Source: a phage. From it: a DNA stretch of 64,000 nucleotides. Shown here piece by piece: positions 7,695 through 54,280 of the stretch. The stretch's first letter is position 1. Each line of letters begins with the position of its first letter. The stretch is taken from NCBI GenBank assembly GCA_025611195.1, contig GCA_025611195.1_4718.1. One strand, 5' to 3'. The notes under the pieces were generated by a model, which saw nothing but the letters and a program-made list of their open reading frames with translations, was not told where the DNA came from and ran no database searches. Made by a program: the position numbers and the translations under genes.

Positions 7695-7716
7695 TGTCAC
7701 CTAGGTAATGTAAGCG
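7695..7716 (-). promoter_or_regulatory. early-promoter-like motif (minus-strand reading CGCTTACATTACCTAGGTGACA), degenerate copy of the motif at 15865-15888 and 53555-53578
   Basis: shared core TAC/TATTACCTAGGTGA upstream of a minus-strand gene start and just downstream of a hairpin. Confidence 0.4.
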
Positions 7717-7755
7717 TCAAATTTTTTCTATTTATAACGATAAACGGCATAGAAA

Positions 7756-13978: not shown

Positions 13979-14049
13979 TTTACCTTTCTATGTTAGGTGG
14001 ATTGCGGATAGAAGAATCAATGCATAAACTAATTTAAGTTTGTTAAGGT

Positions 14050-14952
14050 TTACTTAGCCTTTGAGTTATGCGGACTAACATGCTGTTGTACTCGTTGGAT
14101 TGTATCGTAGTACGGGTTAGATTGGTTGAACATGTTGTTGTGTGGGGGATAGCCATATGGCGCATTTTGCCTTGTTGGTGAGAAACCTTGTTGAGAAGGA
14201 CGGTTTGAATTAACCGCGAGTACGTAGTAAACCAAATTTTGACGGTCGAATGTTCCTTCGTTTTTGAAAGTGTCGGCGTAGGCTTTTACCGCTGGAGTGA
14301 GCCTATCACCATCGGCTGTAATAATTGTACCGTCTGGGTAAACTTCCCGAACGACGCACCATGTTCCGATGAGAACATCTTTAGGTGCTGTATTACCATA
14401 TCCGGTTGTAACGGTAAGGTAAGTATCGAACCCTTCAGAACAACAAGGATGACGATAGATGGGTCCTGTCATTTCCGTTCTATCGGTATCGCTACATTGT
14501 TCTATTGAGAGCGATGATGTGTCGGTTTTGAAATTGTCAAATTCTTTCTTTAAGTCGATTACGGGTTCTTTCGTATAGTACTTCTTGATTGCTTTGACGT
14601 AAAGATCAGGAACGGTTGTCAGCAATCCGTTATACCTGATTCTCAGGTTTTCGAGTAATCCAAAGATGCTCGCGCATGCCTGTTCGCGAGGTTTTGTAAG
14701 ATAAGAGATCCCCTCAGGAACGCTGGGATCTTTGAGAAAGAAGATTGCGTTATTGTCGTTGTGCGATGCGTTGAAGAAAACGATTGATTCGATATATACG
14801 GAGCATAGGCTGTCATTGGCGTCGTCAGATAACACCCAGATGCACTCATCGGTCGTCTTGTTTAAAAGTTCTGTTTTGTCGACCAAACGTTGTTTCATTG
14901 CGAGGAAATGTGCCTGTTGTTCAGCAGTTAATTCACGATAAATAGTGGTCAT
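14050..14952 (-). CDS. hypothetical protein (~300 aa), paralog of 15038-15811
   Basis: start at ATG 14952 with AAGGAG SD; C-terminal block HPCCSEGFDTYLTVTTGYGNTAPKDVLIGTWCVVREVYPDGTIITADG matches HPECHTTYDRYLTITGGVAAPSPVDIGEWRMIREIYPDGRIVTFCG in the neighbour. Confidence 0.65.
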   Translation of the reverse strand: MTTIYRELTAEQQAHFLAMKQRLVDKTELLNKTTDECIWVLSDDANDSLCSVYIESIVFFNASHNDNNAIFFLKDPSVPEGISYLTKPREQACASIFGLLENLRIRYNGLLTTVPDLYVKAIKKYYTKEPVIDLKKEFDNFKTDTSSLSIEQCSDTDRTEMTGPIYRHPCCSEGFDTYLTVTTGYGNTAPKDVLIGTWCVVREVYPDGTIITADGDRLTPAVKAYADTFKNEGTFDRQNLVYYVLAVNSNRPSQQGFSPTRQNAPYGYPPHNNMFNQSNPYYDTIQRVQQHVSPHNSKAK

Positions 14953-15037
14953 GTTGGGCTCCTTGATTACGATAAGGATGATTGCGGTTTTGTGGGTTTG
15001 GTAGGGCCCTAAACAAAGGAACCCTACCAATATTAGG

Positions 15038-15811
15038 TTAATCAGGATCGGCGTAGAAATGGTGAGGATAGCCGGAGTACGATCCTGCGTTACCGGCTAT
15101 GGATTCTTTCTGGGAATCGACGACGAGCGCATAGAACTGTCGGGAATTTGTTAGCGTTGAGAAATAAGCGGAAAGGACTTTTTCATTCAATGCATCACAA
15201 GGTAGGCAGGTGCGACCGCAAAACGTCACGATACGGCCGTCAGGATAGATCTCACGAATCATTCTCCACTCACCGATATCCACTGGTGATGGCGCTGCTA
15301 CACCACCTGTTATCGTTAAGTAACGATCGTACGTGGTATGGCATTCAGGATGAATATAGATCGGCTTGTTCGTTTCGACAGGTTCCGAAGTATCTCGACG
15401 ACTAAGAAGCTCAACGACTTCAAGATAAATCGTTGGTAGATCGCGGAGAATACCGGTGCTACGACGTTTCTTTGTGATTCGCGGACGAATCTCGTTGAGA
15501 GCGTATTCGAGCTTACGTTCAGCTTCGTACGCATCGAGTTTTATCAAGCGACCCGGTTCATCGGAATGATCCTGAGTTACGTAAACGAAATACGTGTCGC
15601 CTTTTGCAGCGTGAAAGATTCGAGCGACCTTAAATGTTTCTACGGTACGATAACCAAGGCGCGATTGATTTTCCACAGGAGAAAATATCCAATGCCGTCC
15701 TTCGTCAGCCTCAACAATTTCGTTGAAACTATCTGTCTGTTCTGGGACCTGGTAGTCAGCCAGTAATGTGTCGAGAGCATCATCAGCCAGTTTGATGTAA
15801 ATATCTGTCAT
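15038..15811 (-). CDS. hypothetical protein (257 aa), paralog of 14050-14952
   Basis: shared C-terminal domain with adjacent gene; preceded by promoter-like motif. Confidence 0.65.
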   Translation of the reverse strand: MTDIYIKLADDALDTLLADYQVPEQTDSFNEIVEADEGRHWIFSPVENQSRLGYRTVETFKVARIFHAAKGDTYFVYVTQDHSDEPGRLIKLDAYEAERKLEYALNEIRPRITKKRRSTGILRDLPTIYLEVVELLSRRDTSEPVETNKPIYIHPECHTTYDRYLTITGGVAAPSPVDIGEWRMIREIYPDGRIVTFCGRTCLPCDALNEKVLSAYFSTLTNSRQFYALVVDSQKESIAGNAGSYSGYPHHFYADPD

Positions 15812-15864
15812 GTTTGTATCCTCGGTTATTAAGAGAAATTTACAGTGATAACAGTAAGCGTTGT

Positions 15865-15888
15865 TATCACCTAGGTAATATAGTCGCG
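15865..15888 (-). promoter_or_regulatory. conserved early-promoter-like motif (minus-strand reading CGCGACTATATTACCTAGGTGATA) followed by 5'-UTR inverted repeat AGTGATAACA...TGTTATCAC (15844-15870)
   Basis: near-identical to motif at 53555-53578; placed between a hairpin and the next gene start. Confidence 0.5.
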
Positions 15889-15924
15889 AAATAAACTGGA
15901 GTAATGCGCTTAAGACAGCATAAA

Positions 15925-15957
15925 CCCCTCTCCCAACCCGTCAGGGAAGGGAGAGGG
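15925..15957 (-). terminator. palindromic hairpin element CCCCTCTCCC-AACCC-GTCA-GGGAA-GGGAGAGGG
   Basis: inverted repeat immediately after stop of 15962-17329. Confidence 0.55.
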
Positions 15958-15961
15958 AATA

Positions 15962-21178: not shown

Positions 21179-21228
21179 CGCAGATTCCTGTTTGAAAGAT
21201 AAGATATCACATGATGGTCGACAGCATA

Positions 21229-21251
21229 AAGCCCACCCCGAAGGGCGGGCT
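21229..21251 (-). terminator. hairpin AGCCCACCCC-GAA-GGGCGGGCT downstream of the 1127-aa gene
   Basis: GC-rich inverted repeat in intergenic gap. Confidence 0.45.
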
Positions 21252-21266
21252 GTTTATGCGCACGGA

Positions 21267-27057: not shown

Positions 27058-27163
27058 TTGGGACTCCTACGTAGGAAAATCTTGGCGGGTGATCATGTCC
27101 GCCATTTACCTTCTGAACCGTTGATTCAGAAGTCAAAAGATAACCGGATACCAACGCCATAAA

Positions 27164-27195
27164 CCTTCCTCCAACCCAACAGGGAAGGAGGAAGG
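27164..27195 (-). terminator. palindromic hairpin element CCTTCCTCC-AACCC-AACA-GGGAA-GGAGGAAGG
   Basis: inverted repeat directly after stop of 27206-28495. Confidence 0.55.
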
Positions 27196-27205
27196 GATAT
27201 AGTGG

Positions 27206-29821: not shown

Positions 29822-29869
29822 GTGTTGTCTCCAGTAATGATTCAAAAGATAAACCTGGACGGCATATAA

Positions 29870-29901
29870 CCCTCTCCCAACCCGTAAGGGAAGGGAGAGG
29901 G
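29870..29901 (-). terminator. palindromic hairpin element CCCTCTCCC-AACCC-GTAA-GGGAA-GGGAGAGGG
   Basis: inverted repeat after stop of highly expressed 441-aa gene. Confidence 0.55.
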
Positions 29902-29923
29902 AATATATCAGTCTATTAACTGA

Positions 29924-45852: not shown

Positions 45853-47604
45853 ATGAGCGAACAAGAACGAAAACCTAAGAAGAAACTGCTCGGTATTCAA
45901 TGTCGACACATCAGCTATAACGAAGCGAACGATGGTAGTAAGAACGACCTCATGATCGCAAAAGAGATCATGTTCTTCGATGATAATACGCAAGCGACGA
46001 ACCTTCGCTTCTTCGAGAATTACAAACGTCCGTTTTGGGTGACGGTAGAGAGTAAACGCAAGAACAAATATAAAAAGGAAAGCGAGAAGCTCTCGCACGT
46101 GCGACGCTACGATGTCCGTCAAAGTGAGCTGGTTGAAAAGATCAGCTCGGTGCTTTATAAAAGACGTGCTGACGATAACACCCGTTTACAGCAGCTTGCA
46201 CGGAGTCCCTACCTCTATGGCACGGACGTTAGCGCCAGCTGTTATTTAAAAACCCAATACAATACAAAATGGCCGGAATACGTCGATAAATTACCCGCGT
46301 CTATCGCATGTTTCGATATCGAAACCGATGTTGTCCACGGACACGGTAAGATCGTCTGTATGTCTATTACAATGGGATACAATGCGATCCTTTGCTATAC
46401 CAAGGACTTCGTTGGTCATATTCCGAATGCGATTGAGAAAACCCATGAGAAGATTCGATATTACCTGGCCGAACGTCTGAACACCAAAGAAGATCCTCAT
46501 GCGTTCGAAAAATATCAGTACGATGTTCGAATCGTAGAAAGCCCAGCACAAGCGGTCATCCAATGCATGCAGAAGGTTCACGAATGGCAGCCGGATTATC
46601 TCCTTGGCTGGAATATCGCGTTCGATATTCCGCGTATGCTCCAGGCACTGAACGAGGAAGGGTATCGTCCCGAGGATGTTTTCTCCGATCCTCGTGTACC
46701 ACCTAAGTATCGTATTGCTCGCTGGGTACCACCGAAGACCGACAAGGTATCTGCTTCAGGTCGTAAAACCAACCTTACCCTTGAGCAAACCTGGCCGATG
46801 TTTTATACGATGGCCACGTATCAGGTTATGGATGCGATGTGTGGTTATAAGTTCGTTCGTTTAGGAAGACCGGATGAGGGGAGATACTCACTCGATGCGG
46901 TGTTAGAGCGAAATAAATGTCATACGAAATTAAAAGCAATTCCTGGTACAGAGGGGTTCACGGAGCTTGCGTGGCACGAAGAGATGCAAACGAACCATCA
47001 AATCGACTACGGCGTATATAACCTTTGGGATAACCAGGGTATCGAGGCGTTGGACCAGAAAACAAAAGACTATTCGATGACCATCCCTATTCGTTTGGCA
47101 GCATCGGATTTGAAAGATTTCAGTTCTAACCCTAAACGTATCTGCGATAAACTTTTCTTCGTTTATCTTAACCGTGGGGAAGTCATGGGATGCACCGCCG
47201 ACGACATGACCCAGGAAGAAGATAAGTGGGTTATCTCACGAACCGGACATATCGTCACATTGCCATGCGATCTCATGGCGGACAACGGCATCCATCTCTT
47301 CTGGGATATGCCGAACCTGAGAAGTTATATCCGTCTATTCGTTGCAGACCTCGACATTAGCAGTTCATACCCGAATGGGCAGATCCTGTTGAATCTATCC
47401 AGAGCATGTGTTTTTCGTGAGCTCTCACGCATTGAAGGCGTCTCTGACTATCAGTTCAGGAAGTTAGGTATCAACTTTATTACCGGAGGTAAAACGAACG
47501 CTGTAGACTTCTGTAGAATCGTTTATAAAGCACCATCGATGTTCGAACTCTTAGAACATTTCGATGCAACGCGTCCAAAAGGGGAAGCGCGGACCATCGA
47601 ATGA
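45853..47604 (+). CDS. family B DNA polymerase, N-terminal fragment (3'-5' exonuclease domain plus polymerase motif A); polymerase appears split
   Basis: Exo I CFDIETDV, Exo II LLGWNIAFDIPRM, Exo III YNLWD, motif A ADLDISSSYPNG; no motif B/C before the stop. Confidence 0.7.
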   Translation: MSEQERKPKKKLLGIQCRHISYNEANDGSKNDLMIAKEIMFFDDNTQATNLRFFENYKRPFWVTVESKRKNKYKKESEKLSHVRRYDVRQSELVEKISSVLYKRRADDNTRLQQLARSPYLYGTDVSASCYLKTQYNTKWPEYVDKLPASIACFDIETDVVHGHGKIVCMSITMGYNAILCYTKDFVGHIPNAIEKTHEKIRYYLAERLNTKEDPHAFEKYQYDVRIVESPAQAVIQCMQKVHEWQPDYLLGWNIAFDIPRMLQALNEEGYRPEDVFSDPRVPPKYRIARWVPPKTDKVSASGRKTNLTLEQTWPMFYTMATYQVMDAMCGYKFVRLGRPDEGRYSLDAVLERNKCHTKLKAIPGTEGFTELAWHEEMQTNHQIDYGVYNLWDNQGIEALDQKTKDYSMTIPIRLAASDLKDFSSNPKRICDKLFFVYLNRGEVMGCTADDMTQEEDKWVISRTGHIVTLPCDLMADNGIHLFWDMPNLRSYIRLFVADLDISSSYPNGQILLNLSRACVFRELSRIEGVSDYQFRKLGINFITGGKTNAVDFCRIVYKAPSMFELLEHFDATRPKGEARTIE

Positions 47605-47652
47605 ATCAAGTATGTTGATCCTCGTTTAACAAAAAGAAAACGCATGCGAAGC

Positions 47653-47684
47653 CCCTCCCCCTGGCGGAAGCCGGAGGGAGGGGT
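47653..47684. terminator. hairpin CCCCTCCCCC-TGGCGGAAGCCGGA-GGGAGGGG between convergent genes
   Basis: inverted repeat. Confidence 0.5.
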
Positions 47685-47701: not shown

Positions 47702-48151
47702 TTAATTATTGTTGATGGGGTTATCGTCCGGCTTATATTCGATGCCGTAGGCGACGTAACGGTCTGTCGTATGGACGACAAGCGAGATGGGGAAATCATA
47801 ATGCGTGGTTTTGTCTCGGACGAGCTGAGTAAAGAGATCCATATAACGTATTAAGTCTTCACTGGTGTAATCAGAAGGGAAGAAGACGTCGATGGTTATT
47901 GAATCTTCATAGAGGCGTATAACCAACTTATCCAGAAGGTCGGCATATTGGTTAGCCGGGGTGACGTCCAGCTCACAGATATCACGATCTCCTTCGTCTC
48001 GTGATACCCACATCATGGTATCCTGTAATGAGGTTTCAAGGATCTCGAAAATGCATTTTGCTGTAAGTTTTAGTTTATTTGTTACGTCATGGTTAGGTGA
48101 ATAATGGTCACGGATGTTTTTCACTGCGTCTTTGATAGAGAAAGTCATCAT
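47702..48151 (-). CDS. small paralog array member P1 (149 aa)
   Basis: AAGGAG SD; C-terminal YDFPISLVV...EYKPDDN motif shared with P6-P9. Confidence 0.65.
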   Translation of the reverse strand: MMTFSIKDAVKNIRDHYSPNHDVTNKLKLTAKCIFEILETSLQDTMMWVSRDEGDRDICELDVTPANQYADLLDKLVIRLYEDSITIDVFFPSDYTSEDLIRYMDLFTQLVRDKTTHYDFPISLVVHTTDRYVAYGIEYKPDDNPINNN

Positions 48152-48161
48152 TGATGCTCCT

Positions 48162-48671
48162 TCAAATGAAATTAATACGTGCGGCTGTCGAAACGAGTTC
48201 GCTTGTAAAGCAATGCTTACCGTCGGTGTTTACCGTGTATGTAAGTTTACAAACCTTAGCGGCAGGGTTAGCACCGATAACAAGGACGGTCGTCATATCG
48301 AACAGTTCCACACGTTGAAGAAATGCCGTATCGGCTACCTTCTGTAAACCGGTTGCTTCAAAATCGATGTGGTCGTTAAGAGGCACCAATTGGATTTCAA
48401 TGCGTTCTTTGAAAAGTTTAAACGTTACTGAAAACCGATGAGGTTCGGTATTAAGCCATAAAGGTCCACGTTGGAAGTGCTGATATGCTTCATTCGCGGT
48501 GTTCTCGAAAACCCAGCAGTCGTGGACAAGAGAAGCCTCTTGTAACGATGATTCCAGGTAGTCAAATACCTTGTTTATCGTTTTCTCAAGCATAGGCGCT
48601 AGTGAACCAGGGTATCCGGCAAATGCTGCTTCGGCAATCGATTTTATTGATACGATGTTGTTCTGACTCAT
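48162..48671 (-). CDS. small paralog array member P2 (~169 aa)
   Basis: start moved to ATG 48671 with AAGGAA SD; same size class and context. Confidence 0.55.
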   Translation of the reverse strand: MSQNNIVSIKSIAEAAFAGYPGSLAPMLEKTINKVFDYLESSLQEASLVHDCWVFENTANEAYQHFQRGPLWLNTEPHRFSVTFKLFKERIEIQLVPLNDHIDFEATGLQKVADTAFLQRVELFDMTTVLVIGANPAAKVCKLTYTVNTDGKHCFTSELVSTAARINFI

Positions 48672-48675
48672 TTCT

Positions 48676-49128
48676 TTATTCCTTGTTGGCTTCTTCAATG
48701 TGCTTGGTGTCGTAAGACAAATGCTGAATTAATTTTCTAGGTTCGATGAAAATACGACATGTGATAAACACATCAGGGTTGTATTGTTCCACGCAACGTC
48801 CGAAGGCTCGTTTTGCGGACTGACGCATCAATGTTAATTCCTGATCGTTCATCTCATCATCAAATTCGATGTGTATCGTGATTTTATCGGGAAATAAATA
48901 GATAGAGTAGTCGCTACCGATATCACCGTCGTCAAAACGATAATCGTTGTGGTAATGGTGGAGTTTACCTTCGTGTATCGTCTGGTACCACCCAACGATA
49001 CTATCAAGACCCATACCCAGGCGTCCGAATGCTTGAGTAATAACATCCTCAACGACGGATGCGGGCGTGGGACCATTGAATAGACGATCTAAGCGCTTTT
49101 TCATTGATTTGTCGGTTTTCATGTTCAT
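48676..49128 (-). CDS. small paralog array member P3 (~150 aa)
   Basis: start moved to ATG 49128 with AGGAAA SD; AFGRCVEQYNPDVFITCRIFIEP resembles family C-terminal motif. Confidence 0.55.
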   Translation of the reverse strand: MNMKTDKSMKKRLDRLFNGPTPASVVEDVITQAFGRLGMGLDSIVGWYQTIHEGKLHHYHNDYRFDDGDIGSDYSIYLFPDKITIHIEFDDEMNDQELTLMRQSAKRAFGRCVEQYNPDVFITCRIFIEPRKLIQHLSYDTKHIEEANKE

Positions 49129-49158
49129 TGTTTCTTTTCCTGTGTAGTCGGTATACAA

Positions 49159-49190
49159 CCCTTCCCCGGCCTGATGGCTAGGGAAGGGGC
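49159..49190 (-). terminator. hairpin CCCTTCCCC-loop-GGGAAGGGG inside the small-paralog array
   Basis: inverted repeat between P4 and P3. Confidence 0.45.
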
Positions 49191-49202
49191 TATGCTACGT
49201 TG

Positions 49203-49601
49203 TTATGCTTCGCAATCAGCTGAAGACGTCGCGCCTTTCTTACCAGCGATACGCCAAATCCGACACGCTGGATAATGGTTAACCTCTAGAGAGCAAGGAA
49301 TGTTATATTTCTCTTCCAGCGCATAAAGACATTTCGTTAGCTGCTCCAGCGCGTTCTCGTCGTGTCGTAACGCGTGGTGGCCTAATCGATGTTGGTCGTT
49401 CTTTATATACGCCTCGAAGAGAACATGTTGGCGATGTACGCTGACGTTTACAGCCTCGAGTATAGCTTGGTCGAGCATACGACTAAAGCACATCAACGAG
49501 TCAGATACGTTTTCTCGCTTAACCAGATCGATCATGGCGGGAATATACGAATGGTCGATGTTATCGATGACCGCTTTAGCGACGGAATCAGCAACGTTCA
49601 T
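49203..49601 (-). CDS. small paralog array member P4 (~132 aa)
   Basis: start at ATG 49601; N-terminus MNVADSVAKAVIDNIDH and C-terminus LEEKYNIPCSLEVNHYPA near-identical to P5. Confidence 0.65.
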   Translation of the reverse strand: MNVADSVAKAVIDNIDHSYIPAMIDLVKRENVSDSLMCFSRMLDQAILEAVNVSVHRQHVLFEAYIKNDQHRLGHHALRHDENALEQLTKCLYALEEKYNIPCSLEVNHYPACRIWRIAGKKGATSSADCEA

Positions 49602-49637
49602 CTTTTTAATCCCTAGTTTGTTATTGATCACGTATAT

Positions 49638-50033
49638 TTACTCTTTGACGTCAGTTGTCGTTTCGACATGCTTCTCACTACTGACGTACCAGAGCAGGTA
49701 CGCTGGGAAAAGATTGACCTCTAAGCTAAATGGGATATTGTATTTCTCTTCCATTTTACAGAGATGTTCTTTAATTAAATTTCTCGCGTCTCTGTCACCA
49801 CGAACAGAGTGCCAGTCTAGTTCTTTGTTCTCCTTTACCAGGACCTCTACGATGATACGTTGCTCGTGAACCTCGGTTTTCACAGTGAAAAGTAAATCGC
49901 TGCTATCAAAACGGGTAAAACGAATGTATGAACCAGGTGTTTTTTCTTGTTTAATAATATCGATCATGGTAGAAATGCGCGGATGATCGATGTTGTCGTT
50001 AACAGCTTTAACGATGGATTCTACAATGCTCAT
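49638..50033 (-). CDS. small paralog array member P5 (131 aa)
   Basis: MSIVESIVKAVNDNIDH...MEEKYNIPFSLEVNLFPA; tandem duplicate of P4. Confidence 0.65.
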   Translation of the reverse strand: MSIVESIVKAVNDNIDHPRISTMIDIIKQEKTPGSYIRFTRFDSSDLLFTVKTEVHEQRIIVEVLVKENKELDWHSVRGDRDARNLIKEHLCKMEEKYNIPFSLEVNLFPAYLLWYVSSEKHVETTTDVKE

Positions 50034-50065
50034 TTTTTATCCTTAATGTTATCGATTTGGAAATA

Positions 50066-50833
50066 TTACTTATTTTTGCTTTCTTTATAGACAGTTGTTA
50101 CCCACGATGGGAAAGCCGGATGGAAACAGAGCGTGAACGTAACTGTCGTATCGTATTTAAACGCGCAGTTCACTAACCGGGTATCGAACGTTTTCCTTAG
50201 ACCATCATCATCGTTATCGATGACAGCCATATCTCTTAATATCCCAAGCACGTTAACGCCGTCGAGTGTCTGGGTTACGACAAGTCGTCGTAATGGCCCG
50301 CATGTATAGTCACGTACAAATCCTTTCTTCGGGTCCGATACCCTGTTTAACGCATCGTGATTTTTGATGAATTCATCGGCGATACAATAGGTTTGTTCCC
50401 TTGCTTTATCGGGATCGTATTCTGCTAATAGTTCCTTCGTGTCGAACGTTATCATGTTATTATCATTCGATTCAGAAGGGAAACATAAAACTAAACGAAC
50501 AGGGTATTCGTATTGATCTGTTCTTGTTTCGAAAGCATTAGCTAGACACGGCTTGTATGCCTTTGCGTCGACATTGTCCAAACATGGATGCAATAATGCA
50601 TGAATAACGGCACCATCGTCAGTTAAACCGAATTCCAGAAATTGTACTTTATCAGTATCCGCTACGGTTTTCTGAAGATACGCTTTACCGTTTACGATAT
50701 CGGTATCCCACATATCGTCGTTTAACGATTCTTCAAACTTATCGAATATATGGTTTACGAGATTGACGAGTTCATCAATACGGCACTGTTGGTTGAATTC
50801 GATTAATCGCTGAACTTTATCTTTGATAGACAT
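50066..50833 (-). CDS. small paralog array member P6 (255 aa, possibly a two-domain fusion)
   Basis: contains AFETRTDQYEYPVRLVLCFPSE motif mid-protein and second related half. Confidence 0.6.
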   Translation of the reverse strand: MSIKDKVQRLIEFNQQCRIDELVNLVNHIFDKFEESLNDDMWDTDIVNGKAYLQKTVADTDKVQFLEFGLTDDGAVIHALLHPCLDNVDAKAYKPCLANAFETRTDQYEYPVRLVLCFPSESNDNNMITFDTKELLAEYDPDKAREQTYCIADEFIKNHDALNRVSDPKKGFVRDYTCGPLRRLVVTQTLDGVNVLGILRDMAVIDNDDDGLRKTFDTRLVNCAFKYDTTVTFTLCFHPAFPSWVTTVYKESKNK

Positions 50834-50835
50834 GA

Positions 50836-51294
50836 TTACCCCTTAGTTTCTTCTTCGTCTGGAGAGTACTCCATTGTGTAGAATTCATAACCATCGGAAA
50901 ACTTGAGTGTTAATGTAATAGGGAAATCGCACGGCATAGCTGATTTCGTAAACGCGTTATTAGCAACATCAGCCAACCGACGTATAGCATCAGTCCCGCT
51001 GACGCTGAACGGTAGTTGTATGTTGATAAGGATGCGGTGCTTGTAAACATGGAAAACAACGGTACTGTCAAGATAAACGCTATGGAACGGTATTGTTGGG
51101 ATGCGTTCCACGATGGTAAAATACGTCCCGTCATTATCGCTATGTCCCATCGACCAAATATCGGATTTGCGTAGATTTTGTTTGAGGGATTCGATACTTC
51201 GAGTGACGGTATCAACAACAGGCGTGACGTAAGTGTCTTTATGCGAGTCGAAAAGTTCGTTGACGTTAGATTCGAATGAATACATTGTTGCCAT
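50836..51294 (-). CDS. small paralog array member P7 (152 aa)
   Basis: C-terminus AFTKSAMPCDFPITLTLKFSDGYEFYTMEYSPDEE; start overlaps P8 stop (TAATG). Confidence 0.65.
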   Translation of the reverse strand: MATMYSFESNVNELFDSHKDTYVTPVVDTVTRSIESLKQNLRKSDIWSMGHSDNDGTYFTIVERIPTIPFHSVYLDSTVVFHVYKHRILINIQLPFSVSGTDAIRRLADVANNAFTKSAMPCDFPITLTLKFSDGYEFYTMEYSPDEEETKG

Positions 51295-51773
51295 TATTCT
51301 ACCTCTTTCTTCATCTTCATCGGAACAGAGAGTGCTGTTATCTCTGTTCCATTATCCGGTTCATACTCCAATGTAACGAGATTGCAGCCATCCGATAATT
51401 CATAATCGATCGCTAGGGGGAACGAGACACCGTGCGACTTTATGCATTTACCAAATGTCTCGTTGGCTGTATACATTAGAAGTTGCTTTGCGGCAAGCCC
51501 GTTTACGCTGAAAGGTAATCGTGCTGTCGCAGCGATACGATTATTGTAAACTCTGATATCGGTGATATCTACAATCGTAGCATTGCCGTGTTGTGTCGTT
51601 GGAACGGATAGGCTGTAGAAGTAAGGTTCGGAGTCGGAATCGGGCTCGTTAAATAATTCCCAGCACCCGTCCTCCTGCAATCTTACTTCGAGTATTTCAA
51701 AGCTTTTAATTATCGATTCTACCAGCTGCTCACCGTAAGAATCCCATGTCGTCATTTTTAACACCTTCGACAC
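51294..51773 (-). CDS. small paralog array member P8 (159 aa)
   Basis: C-terminus TFGKCIKSHGVSFPLAIDYELSDGCNLVTLEYEPDNG. Confidence 0.65.
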   Translation of the reverse strand: MSKVLKMTTWDSYGEQLVESIIKSFEILEVRLQEDGCWELFNEPDSDSEPYFYSLSVPTTQHGNATIVDITDIRVYNNRIAATARLPFSVNGLAAKQLLMYTANETFGKCIKSHGVSFPLAIDYELSDGCNLVTLEYEPDNGTEITALSVPMKMKKEVE

Positions 51774-51825
51774 CTTTTAACCGATGCGTGCCCCACCTAA
51801 CAAGGGACACGATATCGTTGATTAA

Positions 51826-52326
51826 TTACTCTTCTGTGTTTTCATTGTCAGGATCGTAATGGAATTCGAACAGCCCTGAACCGTCATGTCCGTTGATTGT
51901 TAGTATAACGGGCATATCGAATCCTCGGACGCGCGAATGAAAACACTGTGCTAATTTTAGTTTGGCGTATGCCGCTATTTCATTGACGGCAATACACGAC
52001 TCACCTGTTATACTCAGTATAACGTCGATACTAACAACGTTGTCGTGCAACGCAAAACGCCAGCGATCGATACGATTATTATCTTTAGCAGCTGTCTCGT
52101 TTACGAGATAGACTTTATCGTCAACTGACAAAGCAGGGCTCCAGCAACGTTCGTTTATTAAATTCGCCTGGAGTTTTAGTATCGTCTGATCAATAATATC
52201 CCAACACGCAACCAGTGTGGTGTCGGGCACTGAACAGAGAAGGGCGAGCACTTTATCCTTTATTTTAAGTGCTTCCACAGAGCGTCCGCAAATACCATGC
52301 ATTTCAACCTTCTTATTCATATTCAC
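51826..52326 (-). CDS. small paralog array member P9 (166 aa)
   Basis: C-terminus LAQCFHSRVRGFDMPVILTINGHDGSGLFEFHYDPDNE. Confidence 0.65.
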   Translation of the reverse strand: MNMNKKVEMHGICGRSVEALKIKDKVLALLCSVPDTTLVACWDIIDQTILKLQANLINERCWSPALSVDDKVYLVNETAAKDNNRIDRWRFALHDNVVSIDVILSITGESCIAVNEIAAYAKLKLAQCFHSRVRGFDMPVILTINGHDGSGLFEFHYDPDNENTEE

Positions 52327-52363
52327 CTCTTTCTTAATCTAAATGTTAGTTGGGGTGGGATGC

Positions 52364-52966
52364 TTACATGCTTTCTAGCATATTGACGATCATGGAACCC
52401 ATACCGAAACTCGGTCTCTCGCCAATGTACTCAGCAAGCTGACGATGAACGTCTTTTGGATTCCCTTCTTCACCGTCGGCGTCGATGTAAACCGAAAAAG
52501 AAAATGAATCGCAATCCACGCTGATAACCAGACGACGCTCATTGCGTTCCTTGAGTGTGTCGACAATAGCTGCTTTCAGTACTGCGATCGCGTTCATCGC
52601 GTGCAAGATATCTCCATCGGGTTTCGGCAGATCGATCTTTTCTTTCAGGTCGATATTGATGTTGGTTACAATTGGATTGAGGTCGACCTTGACATAATCG
52701 TTAGGGTACATGCGAATAATCGCACGATCGATATCTGAACCGTAAAAGTCAACACGCGGCTTTAACACTTCTTTGTTTGGATCCATGTTTTCATCCATAC
52801 CCGCCTGTAGAAAGCGTTCTACGTTATCCAGTTCACGATAGATTGACGCTTCGATTTCTTTCAGATAGTTGGCTGCGGTTTCATGTTCTTTACGCAGCTC
52901 GTCTTTAAGGAGCTGTACGGTGGTTTCACTGGAACGAATGCTGTTTGCGAACTGGGTAATTGACAT
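52364..52966 (-). CDS. small array gene P10 (~200 aa)
   Basis: start moved to ATG 52966 (AAGGAA SD) because the longer track ORF runs through the terminator at 53014-53043. Confidence 0.55.
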   Translation of the reverse strand: MSITQFANSIRSSETTVQLLKDELRKEHETAANYLKEIEASIYRELDNVERFLQAGMDENMDPNKEVLKPRVDFYGSDIDRAIIRMYPNDYVKVDLNPIVTNINIDLKEKIDLPKPDGDILHAMNAIAVLKAAIVDTLKERNERRLVISVDCDSFSFSVYIDADGEEGNPKDVHRQLAEYIGERPSFGMGSMIVNMLESM

Positions 52967-53013
52967 ATCGAATTCCTTAAATTCTCTTGAGTTCAATTGA
53001 TGATGAAAAGCTG

Positions 53014-53043
53014 TTAAAAAAATGGTGGGGTTCTCCCCCACCA
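53014..53043 (-). terminator. canonical intrinsic terminator: stem TGGTGGGG/CCCCACCA with U7 tract on minus-strand transcript
   Basis: inverted repeat 53023-53043 plus A7 on plus strand 53016-53022 immediately 3' (minus sense) of hairpin. Confidence 0.6.
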
Positions 53044-53066
53044 AAACGTCAGACACACGCAGAAAA

Positions 53067-53489
53067 TCAATTCAGTGATGCATACAACGCATAACGACTG
53101 TAGATTTCAACCGCTGGTCCATTATGCGTTAACAGACCATCTCGGTTGTAGTATTGGAAAAATGAATAACGTTTGTCGAAGTGATAAACGAAAGCAATGT
53201 CTTTGCCAAGACCTGTGATGTGCGGTCTGTTTTTATCTAGCAATGCTTTGACTTTTAACAGTGTTGCCGCACGCGCTTTAACATTAGGGATTAATCCATC
53301 ACAGTCGATATAAATCGTGTAACCTGTTTCTGATGCTGCGACAGTTGTATTGCGATTGACGCGAAAGATTTTTGTTTTGTATGTATCATCTTCAAGGATT
53401 GGGTTTTGTTTTTCGTATTTTCGTTTACGCAGAAATTCTACAACGGTAATATAGTTAGCGGTAATATGTCCGGTTATAGCTTGTAACAT
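53067..53489 (-). CDS. first gene of small array, P11 (140 aa)
   Basis: AAGAGGA SD; immediately downstream of promoter-like motif 53555-53578. Confidence 0.6.
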   Translation of the reverse strand: MLQAITGHITANYITVVEFLRKRKYEKQNPILEDDTYKTKIFRVNRNTTVAASETGYTIYIDCDGLIPNVKARAATLLKVKALLDKNRPHITGLGKDIAFVYHFDKRYSFFQYYNRDGLLTHNGPAVEIYSRYALYASLN

Positions 53490-53554
53490 CTTGACATCCT
53501 CTTATATTGGATTGATTACAGTTATCTTAAATAGGTGATAAGATATCTTGCTCT

Positions 53555-53578
53555 TATCACCTTAGTAATATAGTCGTG
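53555..53578 (-). promoter_or_regulatory. conserved early-promoter-like motif (minus-strand reading CACGACTATATTACTAAGGTGATA) followed by 5'-UTR inverted repeat AGGTGATAAG...CTTATCACCT (53533-53562)
   Basis: near-identical to 15865-15888; sits between hairpin 53618-53660 and start of P11. Confidence 0.5.
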
Positions 53579-53617
53579 AAATAGACTGCGTTAACAAGAA
53601 ATAAAAACAGCATAAAA

Positions 53618-53660
53618 CCTCCTCCCCCATCCTTCAAGAGGACGGTGGGAAGAGGGAGAG
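53618..53660 (-). terminator. degenerate copy of the pyrimidine/purine-arm hairpin element
   Basis: imperfect inverted repeat CCTCCTCCCCCATCC...GGACGGTGGGAAGAGGGAG after stop of 53664-54065. Confidence 0.35.
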
Positions 53661-53663
53661 AGA

Positions 53664-54065: not shown

Positions 54066-54117
54066 GAGGCGCTTTTCCTATTTTTTATTTTCTGCACAGG
54101 ATAAATTCAACGGCATA

Positions 54118-54152
54118 AAGCCCTTCCCTGCCCTTATATGGGGCGGGAAGAG
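54118..54152 (-). terminator. degenerate hairpin element (CCCTTCCCTGCCC-TTATAT-GGGGCGGGAAGAG)
   Basis: imperfect inverted repeat in 215-bp intergenic region. Confidence 0.35.
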
Positions 54153-54280
54153 TTTATGACCGCAATGAGAATCTCTCACGACAAGCTCACGACGATTATC
54201 GCATCACCCCGCGAGTGAGGGAGATCAGGATCACCTCCTACGTCGTAATGACAGCAATCCTGTTAACGTCGCCTTAGGCA

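Follow-up and report, generated by a model that had tools for sequence, protein, structure and literature searches.

The array considered here occupies positions 47702-53489 of a 64,000-nucleotide (nt) stretch of phage DNA (GenBank assembly GCA_025611195.1, contig GCA_025611195.1_4718.1), hereafter the window, and consists of small genes that an earlier note, made from the letters alone, had singled out as a possible effector family. As that note described, the interval is filled by 11 co-oriented open reading frames (ORFs) on the minus strand, each preceded by a Shine-Dalgarno-like sequence (Table 1). By its sequence the window belongs to a close relative of Escherichia phage vB_EcoM_Goslar, a nucleus-forming jumbo phage (Goslarvirus, Chimalliviridae), with 94% nt identity and 82% coverage over 24 kb of the region and its flanks. 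Just 49% of the bases of the array itself align to Goslar, so the array is a locally variable spot between well-matched flanks; relative to Goslar it lacks gp70 and carries six additional genes. Three of the ORFs had been over-extended by the mechanical rule used to call them. The true start of o52364 is the ATG at 52966, since the terminator at 53023-53043 falls within the GTG-extended frame, and it gives a product of 200 amino acids (aa) like Goslar gp74 and its counterparts in all relatives. The other two are o49203, which starts at 49601 and encodes 132 aa as in all homologues, and o48676, which starts at 49128. The stop codon of A2 overlaps the start of A3 by 1 nt. The basic protein of the first gene, o53067, is 95% identical to Goslar gp75, and the proteins of the family described below are acidic, with isoelectric points (pI) of 4.5-6.0 and no hydrophobic segment.

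Table 1. Features of the array and of comparable sites, in window coordinates unless a related locus is named.
Feature	Position	Strand	Properties
E, gp75-like (o53067)	53067..53489	(-)	140 aa; pI 9.5 (basic); operon gene 1
D, gp74-like (o52364)	52364..52966	(-)	200 aa; acidic; kept in all relatives
A1, gp73-like (o51826)	51826..52326	(-)	164-166 aa; family member
A2 (o51294)	51294..51773	(-)	family member; not in Goslar
A3, gp72-like (o50836)	50836..51294	(-)	152 aa; family member
A4-K (o50066)	50066..50833	(-)	255 aa; two-domain member; not in Goslar
C2 (o49638)	49638..50033	(-)	131 aa; not in Goslar
C1 (o49203)	49203..49601	(-)	132 aa from ATG 49601; not in Goslar
B1, gp71-like (o48676)	48676..49128	(-)	150 aa from ATG 49128
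B2 (o48162)	48162..48671	(-)	169 aa from ATG 48671; not in Goslar
A5 (o47702)	47702..48151	(-)	149 aa; not in Goslar
Chimallivirus early (virion RNA polymerase) promoter motif, TTTCACGACTATATTACTAAGGTGA	53557..53581	(-)	core TATATTAC at 53565-53572
Stem-loop	53533..53562	(-)	-16.1 kcal/mol; z -5.95; begins 2-3 nt after promoter core
Intrinsic-terminator-like hairpin, E/D junction	53023..53043	(-)	8-bp stem + U7; annotated terminator in Goslar
Extra hairpin between A1 and A2	51782..51817	(-)	-17.5 kcal/mol; z -3.5
Hairpin between C1 and B1	49159..49190	(-)	-25.8 kcal/mol; z -3.7; no U-tract
Terminal hairpin, convergent junction with DNA polymerase gene	47652..47683	(-)	-27.7 kcal/mol; no adjacent U-run
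Terminator hairpin after upstream gp76-like gene	53618..53655	(-)	-28.4 kcal/mol; z -3.6
Hairpin-TTTATGCYGT regions	15812-15961, 21179-21266, 27058-27205, 29846-29923, 53490-53663, 54066-54280	(-)	
Extra gene in related loci	L002 8250-8690, L003 6877-7317, L008 6067-6522, L013 7771-8259, L015 7816-8304		

Orthologues for the construction of profiles were drawn from seven further Goslar-like contigs and from protein searches, and the profiles were then compared with one another. Group A, comprising o47702, the N-terminal half of o50066, o50836, o51294 and o51826, is held together by blastp and hhalign links, and the five genes in which a block of the form [FY][DE]xP[IV]xL ... [YF]x[YF]xPD had been noticed do align full-length as one family. 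Group B (o48162 and o48676) aligns with group A over 146 columns (hhalign 97%, E = 1.2e-10), and at the level of sequence the seven window genes of these two groups are demonstrably one family. Group C is the pair o49203 and o49638, rightly called tandem duplicates at the outset (38% identity, blastp E = 1.9e-29, hhalign 99.8%). Against the profile of A and B together, this pair scores weakly (P = 0.002), though the match runs collinearly through hairpin, helix and hairpin, and the C-terminal half of o50066 (residues 141-255) is matched to the A family at the same level (P = 0.002). By hhalign, similarity to the family is not significant for D (o52364, gp74-like; P = 0.013) or for E (o53067, gp75-like; P = 0.2), nor is it for the gp76-like neighbour, Goslar gp70 and three other singleton genes. 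Of the 11 paralogues initially counted, at least nine are thus supported, seven by sequence and the C pair by predicted fold; significant similarity does not extend to every one of the 11 genes, the gp74-like and gp75-like genes being those that lack it. No direct repeats exist between the paralogues at the DNA level, so the duplications are old rather than recent, and other phages hold separate orthologues of every copy; the copies are accordingly taken to be ancient.

The AlphaFold2 model of o49203, with a predicted local distance difference test (pLDDT) score of 83.9 and a predicted template modelling (pTM) score of 0.80, has the order H-H-E-E-E-H-E-E, where H is a helix and E a strand. That of o50066 (pLDDT 82.7, pTM 0.72) has two domains with the same element order, residues 1-137 forming H-E-E-E-E-H-E-E and residues 141-250 forming H-E-E-E-H-E-E. 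When searched with Foldseek against BFVD, a library of predicted viral structures, both models return Goslar gp73, an A-family protein of the Goslar array, as the top match, o49203 at E = 1.6e-5 (probability 1.0, template modelling (TM) score 0.57, 10% identity) and o50066 at E = 1.2e-8 (TM 0.67); significant matches are limited to gp73 and one 166-aa relative. The BFVD list is uninformative on gp74, gp75 and gp70, as even the certain homologues gp71 and gp72 are missing from it. A common predicted fold is therefore seen for the A type, the C-domain of o50066 and the C type; the helix and strand patterns of the gp74-like and gp75-like proteins, judged by eye, may also fit it. On the strength of the models, together with the weak profile signal, the o49203/o49638 pair is assigned to the family, nine of the 11 genes are counted as one predicted fold family, and o50066 is counted as a probable fusion of an A-type and a C-type domain, the latter of the same predicted topology. 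A KY[DN]...[HY]PA...W block also appears to be common to the C-domain of o50066 and the two C genes downstream of it. The family would thus consist of small (130-170 aa), acidic and soluble alpha/beta proteins, built from one or more N-terminal helices, a meander of three to four strands, a helix and then a beta-hairpin.

No member has a match below E = 0.01 in Pfam, PHROGs or PADLOC, and searches of the PDB with A- and C-family profiles returned no significant match, which bears out the original statement that no known domain is present. The family is likewise not matched by the curated hidden Markov model of any known defence or anti-defence family in PADLOC, Pfam or PHROGs. Below threshold, a PD-(D/E)XK theme recurs: UL24/ORF20, RecE, Cas4 and PD-(D/E)XK proteins dominate the Foldseek lists of both models (E values of 2e-3 to 0.1), and in PADLOC a Cas4-like nuclease is matched marginally by o51826 (E = 0.025). 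The order of helix, three strands, helix and strand also fits the PD-(D/E)XK core. These proteins could on this account be catalytically dead derivatives of a Cas4/RecB/UL24-like nuclease that bind nucleic acid, such as host DNA or phage messenger RNA (mRNA). Behind the theme, however, the family alignments hold no conserved catalytic column; neither the superfamily's D...(D/E)xK motif on strands 2-3 nor a significant fold match was found, and no catalytic signature was found in the family. A descent from dead nucleases is considered very improbable.

The early-promoter-like motif that had been proposed for the array head is well supported. The core of TTTCACGACTATATTACTAAGGTGA, namely TATATTAC, is the early-promoter consensus of phiKZ (PMC7058600), and its extended sequence fits, in core and flank, the early consensus of 201phi2-1, WTTTRARR_BTATATTACDWHDGTG (PMC7058600 Table 2). 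The exact TATATTAC is not enriched in the window (3 occurrences against 1.6 expected), so only the extended pattern is specific: a degenerate 25-nt pattern, derived from three copies, matches the window at three sites (7721, 15891 and 53581) against a mean of 0.32 in shuffles. Within Goslar 1-100 kb the pattern has five sites, each of which heads one of the five blocks resistant to knock-down of ChmA (gp004-001, gp021-014, gp040-037, gp047-044 and gp075-070), and it thus falls at the heads of early operons and not elsewhere in that interval. One copy stands at the array head in every related locus that covers this head. Scans for Sigma-70 promoters and generic terminators showed no enrichment.

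The stem-loop that follows the promoter core probably forms the 5' end of the transcript. At the equivalent site in L002, L003, L005 and L008 (four of the related loci) and in Goslar, an 8-11-bp stem-loop is found 2-3 nt past the array-head promoter, and a second such stem-loop occurs in the window at 15842-15870 (-). The stem sequences are wholly different between phages (e.g., GGUGAUAAG, CCUAAGUGAC, UUCAUGAUGC and GGUGAAGC); it is the structure that is conserved at the early transcript start, and it has no match in Rfam. The three hairpins that had been noted in and below the array are stable, with energies of -16.7, -25.8 and -27.7 kcal/mol and z-scores of -4.4, -3.7 and -2.9, and among them the GC-rich hairpin and U-tract of an intrinsic terminator are combined at 53023-53043 alone. 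Upstream, the hairpin of the gp76-like gene is followed by UUUUAUGC (TATG, late-promoter-like; UUUAUGC in RNA). This hairpin, at 53618-53655, marks the upstream limit of the early block, and that at 47652-47683 marks its downstream limit.

Expression of the Goslar orthologues is recorded in an RNA-seq comparison of ChmA knock-down over control at 30 min (Supplementary Table 2, bioRxiv 10.1101/2023.09.20.558163). There, Goslar gp070-075 show log2 fold changes of +1.0 to +1.3 in the knock-down, and gp066-069 and gp076-093 on either side fall by -3 to -7 and are nucleus-dependent; the knock-down transcriptome matches infection at 5-20 min, that is, transcription in the early-infection vesicle (bioRxiv 10.1101/2023.09.20.558163). 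In Goslar the promoter motif and the terminal hairpin lie at the two boundaries of the early block. Reads are evenly dense over gp075-gp070, at about 0.9-1.35 reads per nt, so the terminator after gp75 gives no visible drop in downstream transcripts. The array can thus be regarded as an early transcription unit, as shown for its Goslar orthologues and extended to the window by orthology. Such a unit would start at the virion-RNA-polymerase promoter (TATATTAC core, then the 5' stem-loop), span the 11 genes and end at the hairpin facing the DNA polymerase gene, and its transcription, with the injected genome as template, would precede the phage nucleus and not depend on it.

Peptides of gp070-075 are also present in Goslar virions purified on caesium chloride (CsCl), as determined by quantitative mass spectrometry (Table S4, bioRxiv 10.64898/2026.04.21.720040), and could be taken to mean that the proteins are packaged and injected, like the inner-body paralogues of phiKZ that carry the PF12699 domain. 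Those paralogues (gp92-97, 153, 162 and 163; PMC12676376) are likewise clustered in a chimallivirus and individually dispensable. They differ in being late, proteolytically processed virion proteins of high copy number with a Pfam domain, whereas the array family is early, occurs in traces in virions and has no match to PF12699 or to any other Pfam entry. The copies per virion are about 8 for gp074, 3.7 for gp071 and 0.4-0.5 for gp072, gp073 and gp075, and the non-structural PhuZ is also detected in these preparations (bioRxiv 10.64898/2026.04.21.720040). The gp071-075 values (about 0.4-8 copies) lie in the range of non-structural contaminants, and none of these proteins is in the 28-protein virion model. 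They are therefore at background level and are not structural components; their peptides do show that the genes are translated. For gp071-075 packaging is largely refuted, and as an account of the family it is given almost no credence. The homology to a virion structural domain that the earlier note had named as fatal to its proposal was, similarly, not found. The exception in abundance is gp070 (Goslar L001 4091-4576), at about 166 copies per virion despite its early transcription class. It closes the early block in most relatives, is absent from the window and is unrelated in sequence to the family.

Beyond the array, the family is rare. A profile search of 1.84 billion representative proteins gave 19 matches, about 15 of which are small family proteins (clusters). 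The remaining ones, long repetitive proteins such as P0128, were set aside as spurious repeat matches. All contigs traced from the family searches are Goslar-like, and the longest ones listed for the other matches (about 237-260 kb) belong to assemblies of E. coli, Salmonella, Shigella and metagenomes. Goslar alone matches among 50,697 phage records, no copy of the region is present in complete E. coli genomes or PLSDB plasmids, and the family is absent outside the array within the window and Goslar 1-50 kb. It appears, then, to be restricted to Goslar-like phages. Most of what is known of such phages comes from isolates that they infect persistently (bioRxiv 10.1101/2024.12.31.630880), which fits the occurrence of the family in bacterial assemblies. 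In the papers searched, no mention by name of Goslar gp70-75 was found.

Ten arrays were compared (the window, Goslar, L002, L003, L005, L007, L008, L009, L013 and L015). Their order is constant, E-D-A1-A2-A3-A4K-C2-C1-B1-B2-A5-(gp70), and yet the ten hold ten distinct gene sets of 6 to 13 genes, so that gene content does vary between close relatives. Orthologues range from 32% to 99% aa identity in genomes whose flanks are about 95% identical, with A5 the fastest-diverging subfamily (32-86% between phages). The ratio of non-synonymous to synonymous substitution rates (dN/dS) is 0.13-0.47 for A, B and C, 0.08-0.17 for D and E, and 0.01-0.17 for flanking genes, showing that the retained copies are functional and under purifying selection, yet evolve faster than their neighbours. 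Within one genome pair, dS per gene runs from 0.02 to 0.67, a width that indicates gene-by-gene mosaic exchange. Hybrids are also found: P0078 joins the N-terminal part of A1 to the C-terminal part of A2 at a common NNR tripeptide, P0130 joins the N-terminus of B2 to the C-terminus of A5, and a 305-aa A2-A3 fusion occurs in two samples. Present variation arises from loss, exchange and occasional illegitimate recombination. The description of the array as rapidly diversifying holds in part: gene content varies and dN/dS is raised, but dN/dS stays below 1, the subfamilies are old and most of the variation is loss, exchange and occasional hybrids.

This pattern bears on two further explanations. 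The genes could belong to a core early programme, as a structural or regulatory part of the early-infection vesicle, in mRNA handling or in establishment of the nucleus. They are expressed in the vesicle stage, the gp74-like and gp75-like genes are present in every relative under strong constraint (dN/dS about 0.1), and contacts between members are hinted at by the two-domain protein and by the A2-A3 fusion. Even between phages at 94% identity, however, single A, B and C members are readily lost, Goslar doing without six of them, and by sequence the family occurs in no other chimallivirus, unlike core nucleus functions, which are kept throughout the Chimalliviridae. A core role is on balance distinctly unlikely. 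Alternatively, the array might serve competition between phages, through superinfection exclusion or interference with co-infecting Goslar-like phages. Such a role would account for repertoires that change from strain to strain in phages whose infections of bacterial isolates persist, the state in which Goslar-like phages are chiefly encountered. Even very close relatives differ in repertoire, and the mosaic dS implies frequent co-infection and recombination. A homing-endonuclease polymorphism also adjoins the array, and an element of this kind is reported to mediate interference in PhiPA3 (PMC11620839). Against this, no nuclease or membrane features were found in the array proteins (by Pfam and hydrophobicity), and there is only a slim chance that competition is the answer.

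The preferred explanation is that the family proteins are diversified binding modules without enzymatic activity, at work in the host cytoplasm as infection begins, in its first minutes. The subfamilies are old and fixed in order, with members lost, exchanged, hybridised or fused, and each paralogue may be tuned to a different host factor or defence protein, in counter-defence or host takeover. The strain-specific repertoire would then reflect the hosts that each phage meets, and the conserved head genes (the basic gp75-like and the gp74-like) may be fixed partners or regulators rather than members of the family. A set of early cytoplasmic binding modules directed at host factors or defence proteins is put at an even chance or slightly less, and an anti-defence or host-takeover role is plausible. 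Several points weigh against this explanation. The case for counter-defence or host takeover is made from timing, dispensability, diversification and analogy; dN/dS is below 1, with no sign of positive selection at the gene level; and the structure models are built on shallow alignments from one clade. Profile comparison does not show the gp74-like and gp75-like proteins to be family members. The early class, moreover, was measured in the Goslar orthologues rather than in the window phage, and indirectly, through the 30-min knock-down table, and six of the 11 genes have no Goslar orthologue, their expression being deduced from operon position. Lastly, a canonical terminator follows the first gene, and the equally dense Goslar reads downstream of it may come from read-through or a second promoter.

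A bolder form of the same explanation is that the array is a combinatorial counter-defence repertoire on a new fold and, for nucleus-forming phages, the first anti-defence family of the multigene kind to be described. Every paralogue would then have its own target among the cytoplasmic protein-sensing systems (Avs-, CBASS- or Thoeris-type), to be neutralised or decoyed during the vulnerable vesicle stage, and phage populations would reshuffle the repertoire by recombination to match their hosts. This is considered unlikely.

Several known systems invite comparison. The early operons of phiKZ-type phages (PMC7598289) have the same promoter core and context, are terminator-bounded blocks of small hypothetical proteins and, like the Goslar block, are transcribed independently of the nucleus. 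Unlike these operons, the array is mostly one paralogous family, has a conserved stem-loop right after the promoter and differs in gene content in every sampled relative. According to Ceyssens (2014, as summarised in PMC7598289), the virion RNA polymerase promoter of phiKZ (TATATTAC) drives blocks of small genes without assigned function. Among eukaryotic viruses, the multigene families MGF360/505 of African swine fever virus (ASFV) and the ankyrin and Bcl-2-like arrays of poxviruses are tandem sets of old, diverged paralogues, situated in variable regions, expressed early and strain-dependent in copy number, and their members, which bind rather than catalyse, determine host range or mediate immune evasion. 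The array resembles these in its tandem old paralogues, variable region and early expression, although fold and lineage are unrelated and the function of the array is only predicted. The general phenomenon is thus already known from phiKZ and from the multigene families of large eukaryotic viruses.

Closer to hand, anti-CRISPR/aca islands, T7 Ocr and phiKZ Tad1 are likewise small, acidic, early, accessory and patchy in distribution. Such anti-defence loci hold unrelated genes, whereas the array is one expanded family for which neither sequence nor fold similarity to known inhibitors was found; Tad1 is, in addition, injected, and the array genes are early-expressed. For jumbo phages, a 2026 review (PMC13282480) names Tad1 as the sole anti-defence protein yet described. 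Although DNA-targeting immunity is evaded by nucleus-forming phages, protein-sensing systems can reach them during the minutes that precede the nucleus. An orphan family that is sharply delimited, early and strain-variable is therefore a tractable place to seek counter-defence or host-takeover factors, for which the natural presence/absence variants among Goslar-like phages constitute a ready comparative panel. If these are merely accessory genes without phenotype, the array would still be a clean example of jumbo-phage early operons as hotspots of gene gain and loss.

The gene that faces the array also varies. In the window the DNA polymerase gene at 45853-47604 (+) is uninterrupted and encodes 583 aa. 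In Goslar (L001 492-4002), residues 1-499 and 499-583 are split by a 1.76-kb insertion with the NUMOD1/HNH homing endonuclease gp69, and the Goslar allele is probably intron-containing, with its 3' part unannotated. Most related loci carry a gp69-type endonuclease; the window and L005 are without it. At the opposite end, some relatives have an extra gene of 146-163 aa between the gp76-like and gp75-like genes (Table 1). Its position relative to the promoter differs between phages, since it lies downstream of the early promoter in L002 and L003 and upstream in L008.

Elsewhere in the window, six intergenic regions (Table 1) contain a C-rich/G-rich hairpin directly joined to TTTATGCYGT or a close variant. 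Because this sequence immediately follows the hairpin, a terminator is joined directly to the TATG motif of phiKZ late promoters, and these junctions may couple termination with re-initiation by the non-virion polymerase. The third early-promoter copy, at 7697-7721 (-), has four mismatches to the pattern and heads the block orthologous to gp040-037. One gene of that block is annotated "polymerase", and no early block in the Goslar table is more highly transcribed. A second early block, which follows the promoter at 15891, is also variable: where Goslar has about 90 nt, the window carries at 14027-15806 (-) an insertion of 1.78 kb that encodes two proteins (326 and 257 aa, no Pfam match). The Goslar counterpart of this promoter motif falls within gp047, a 62-aa annotation that may be a spurious ORF.

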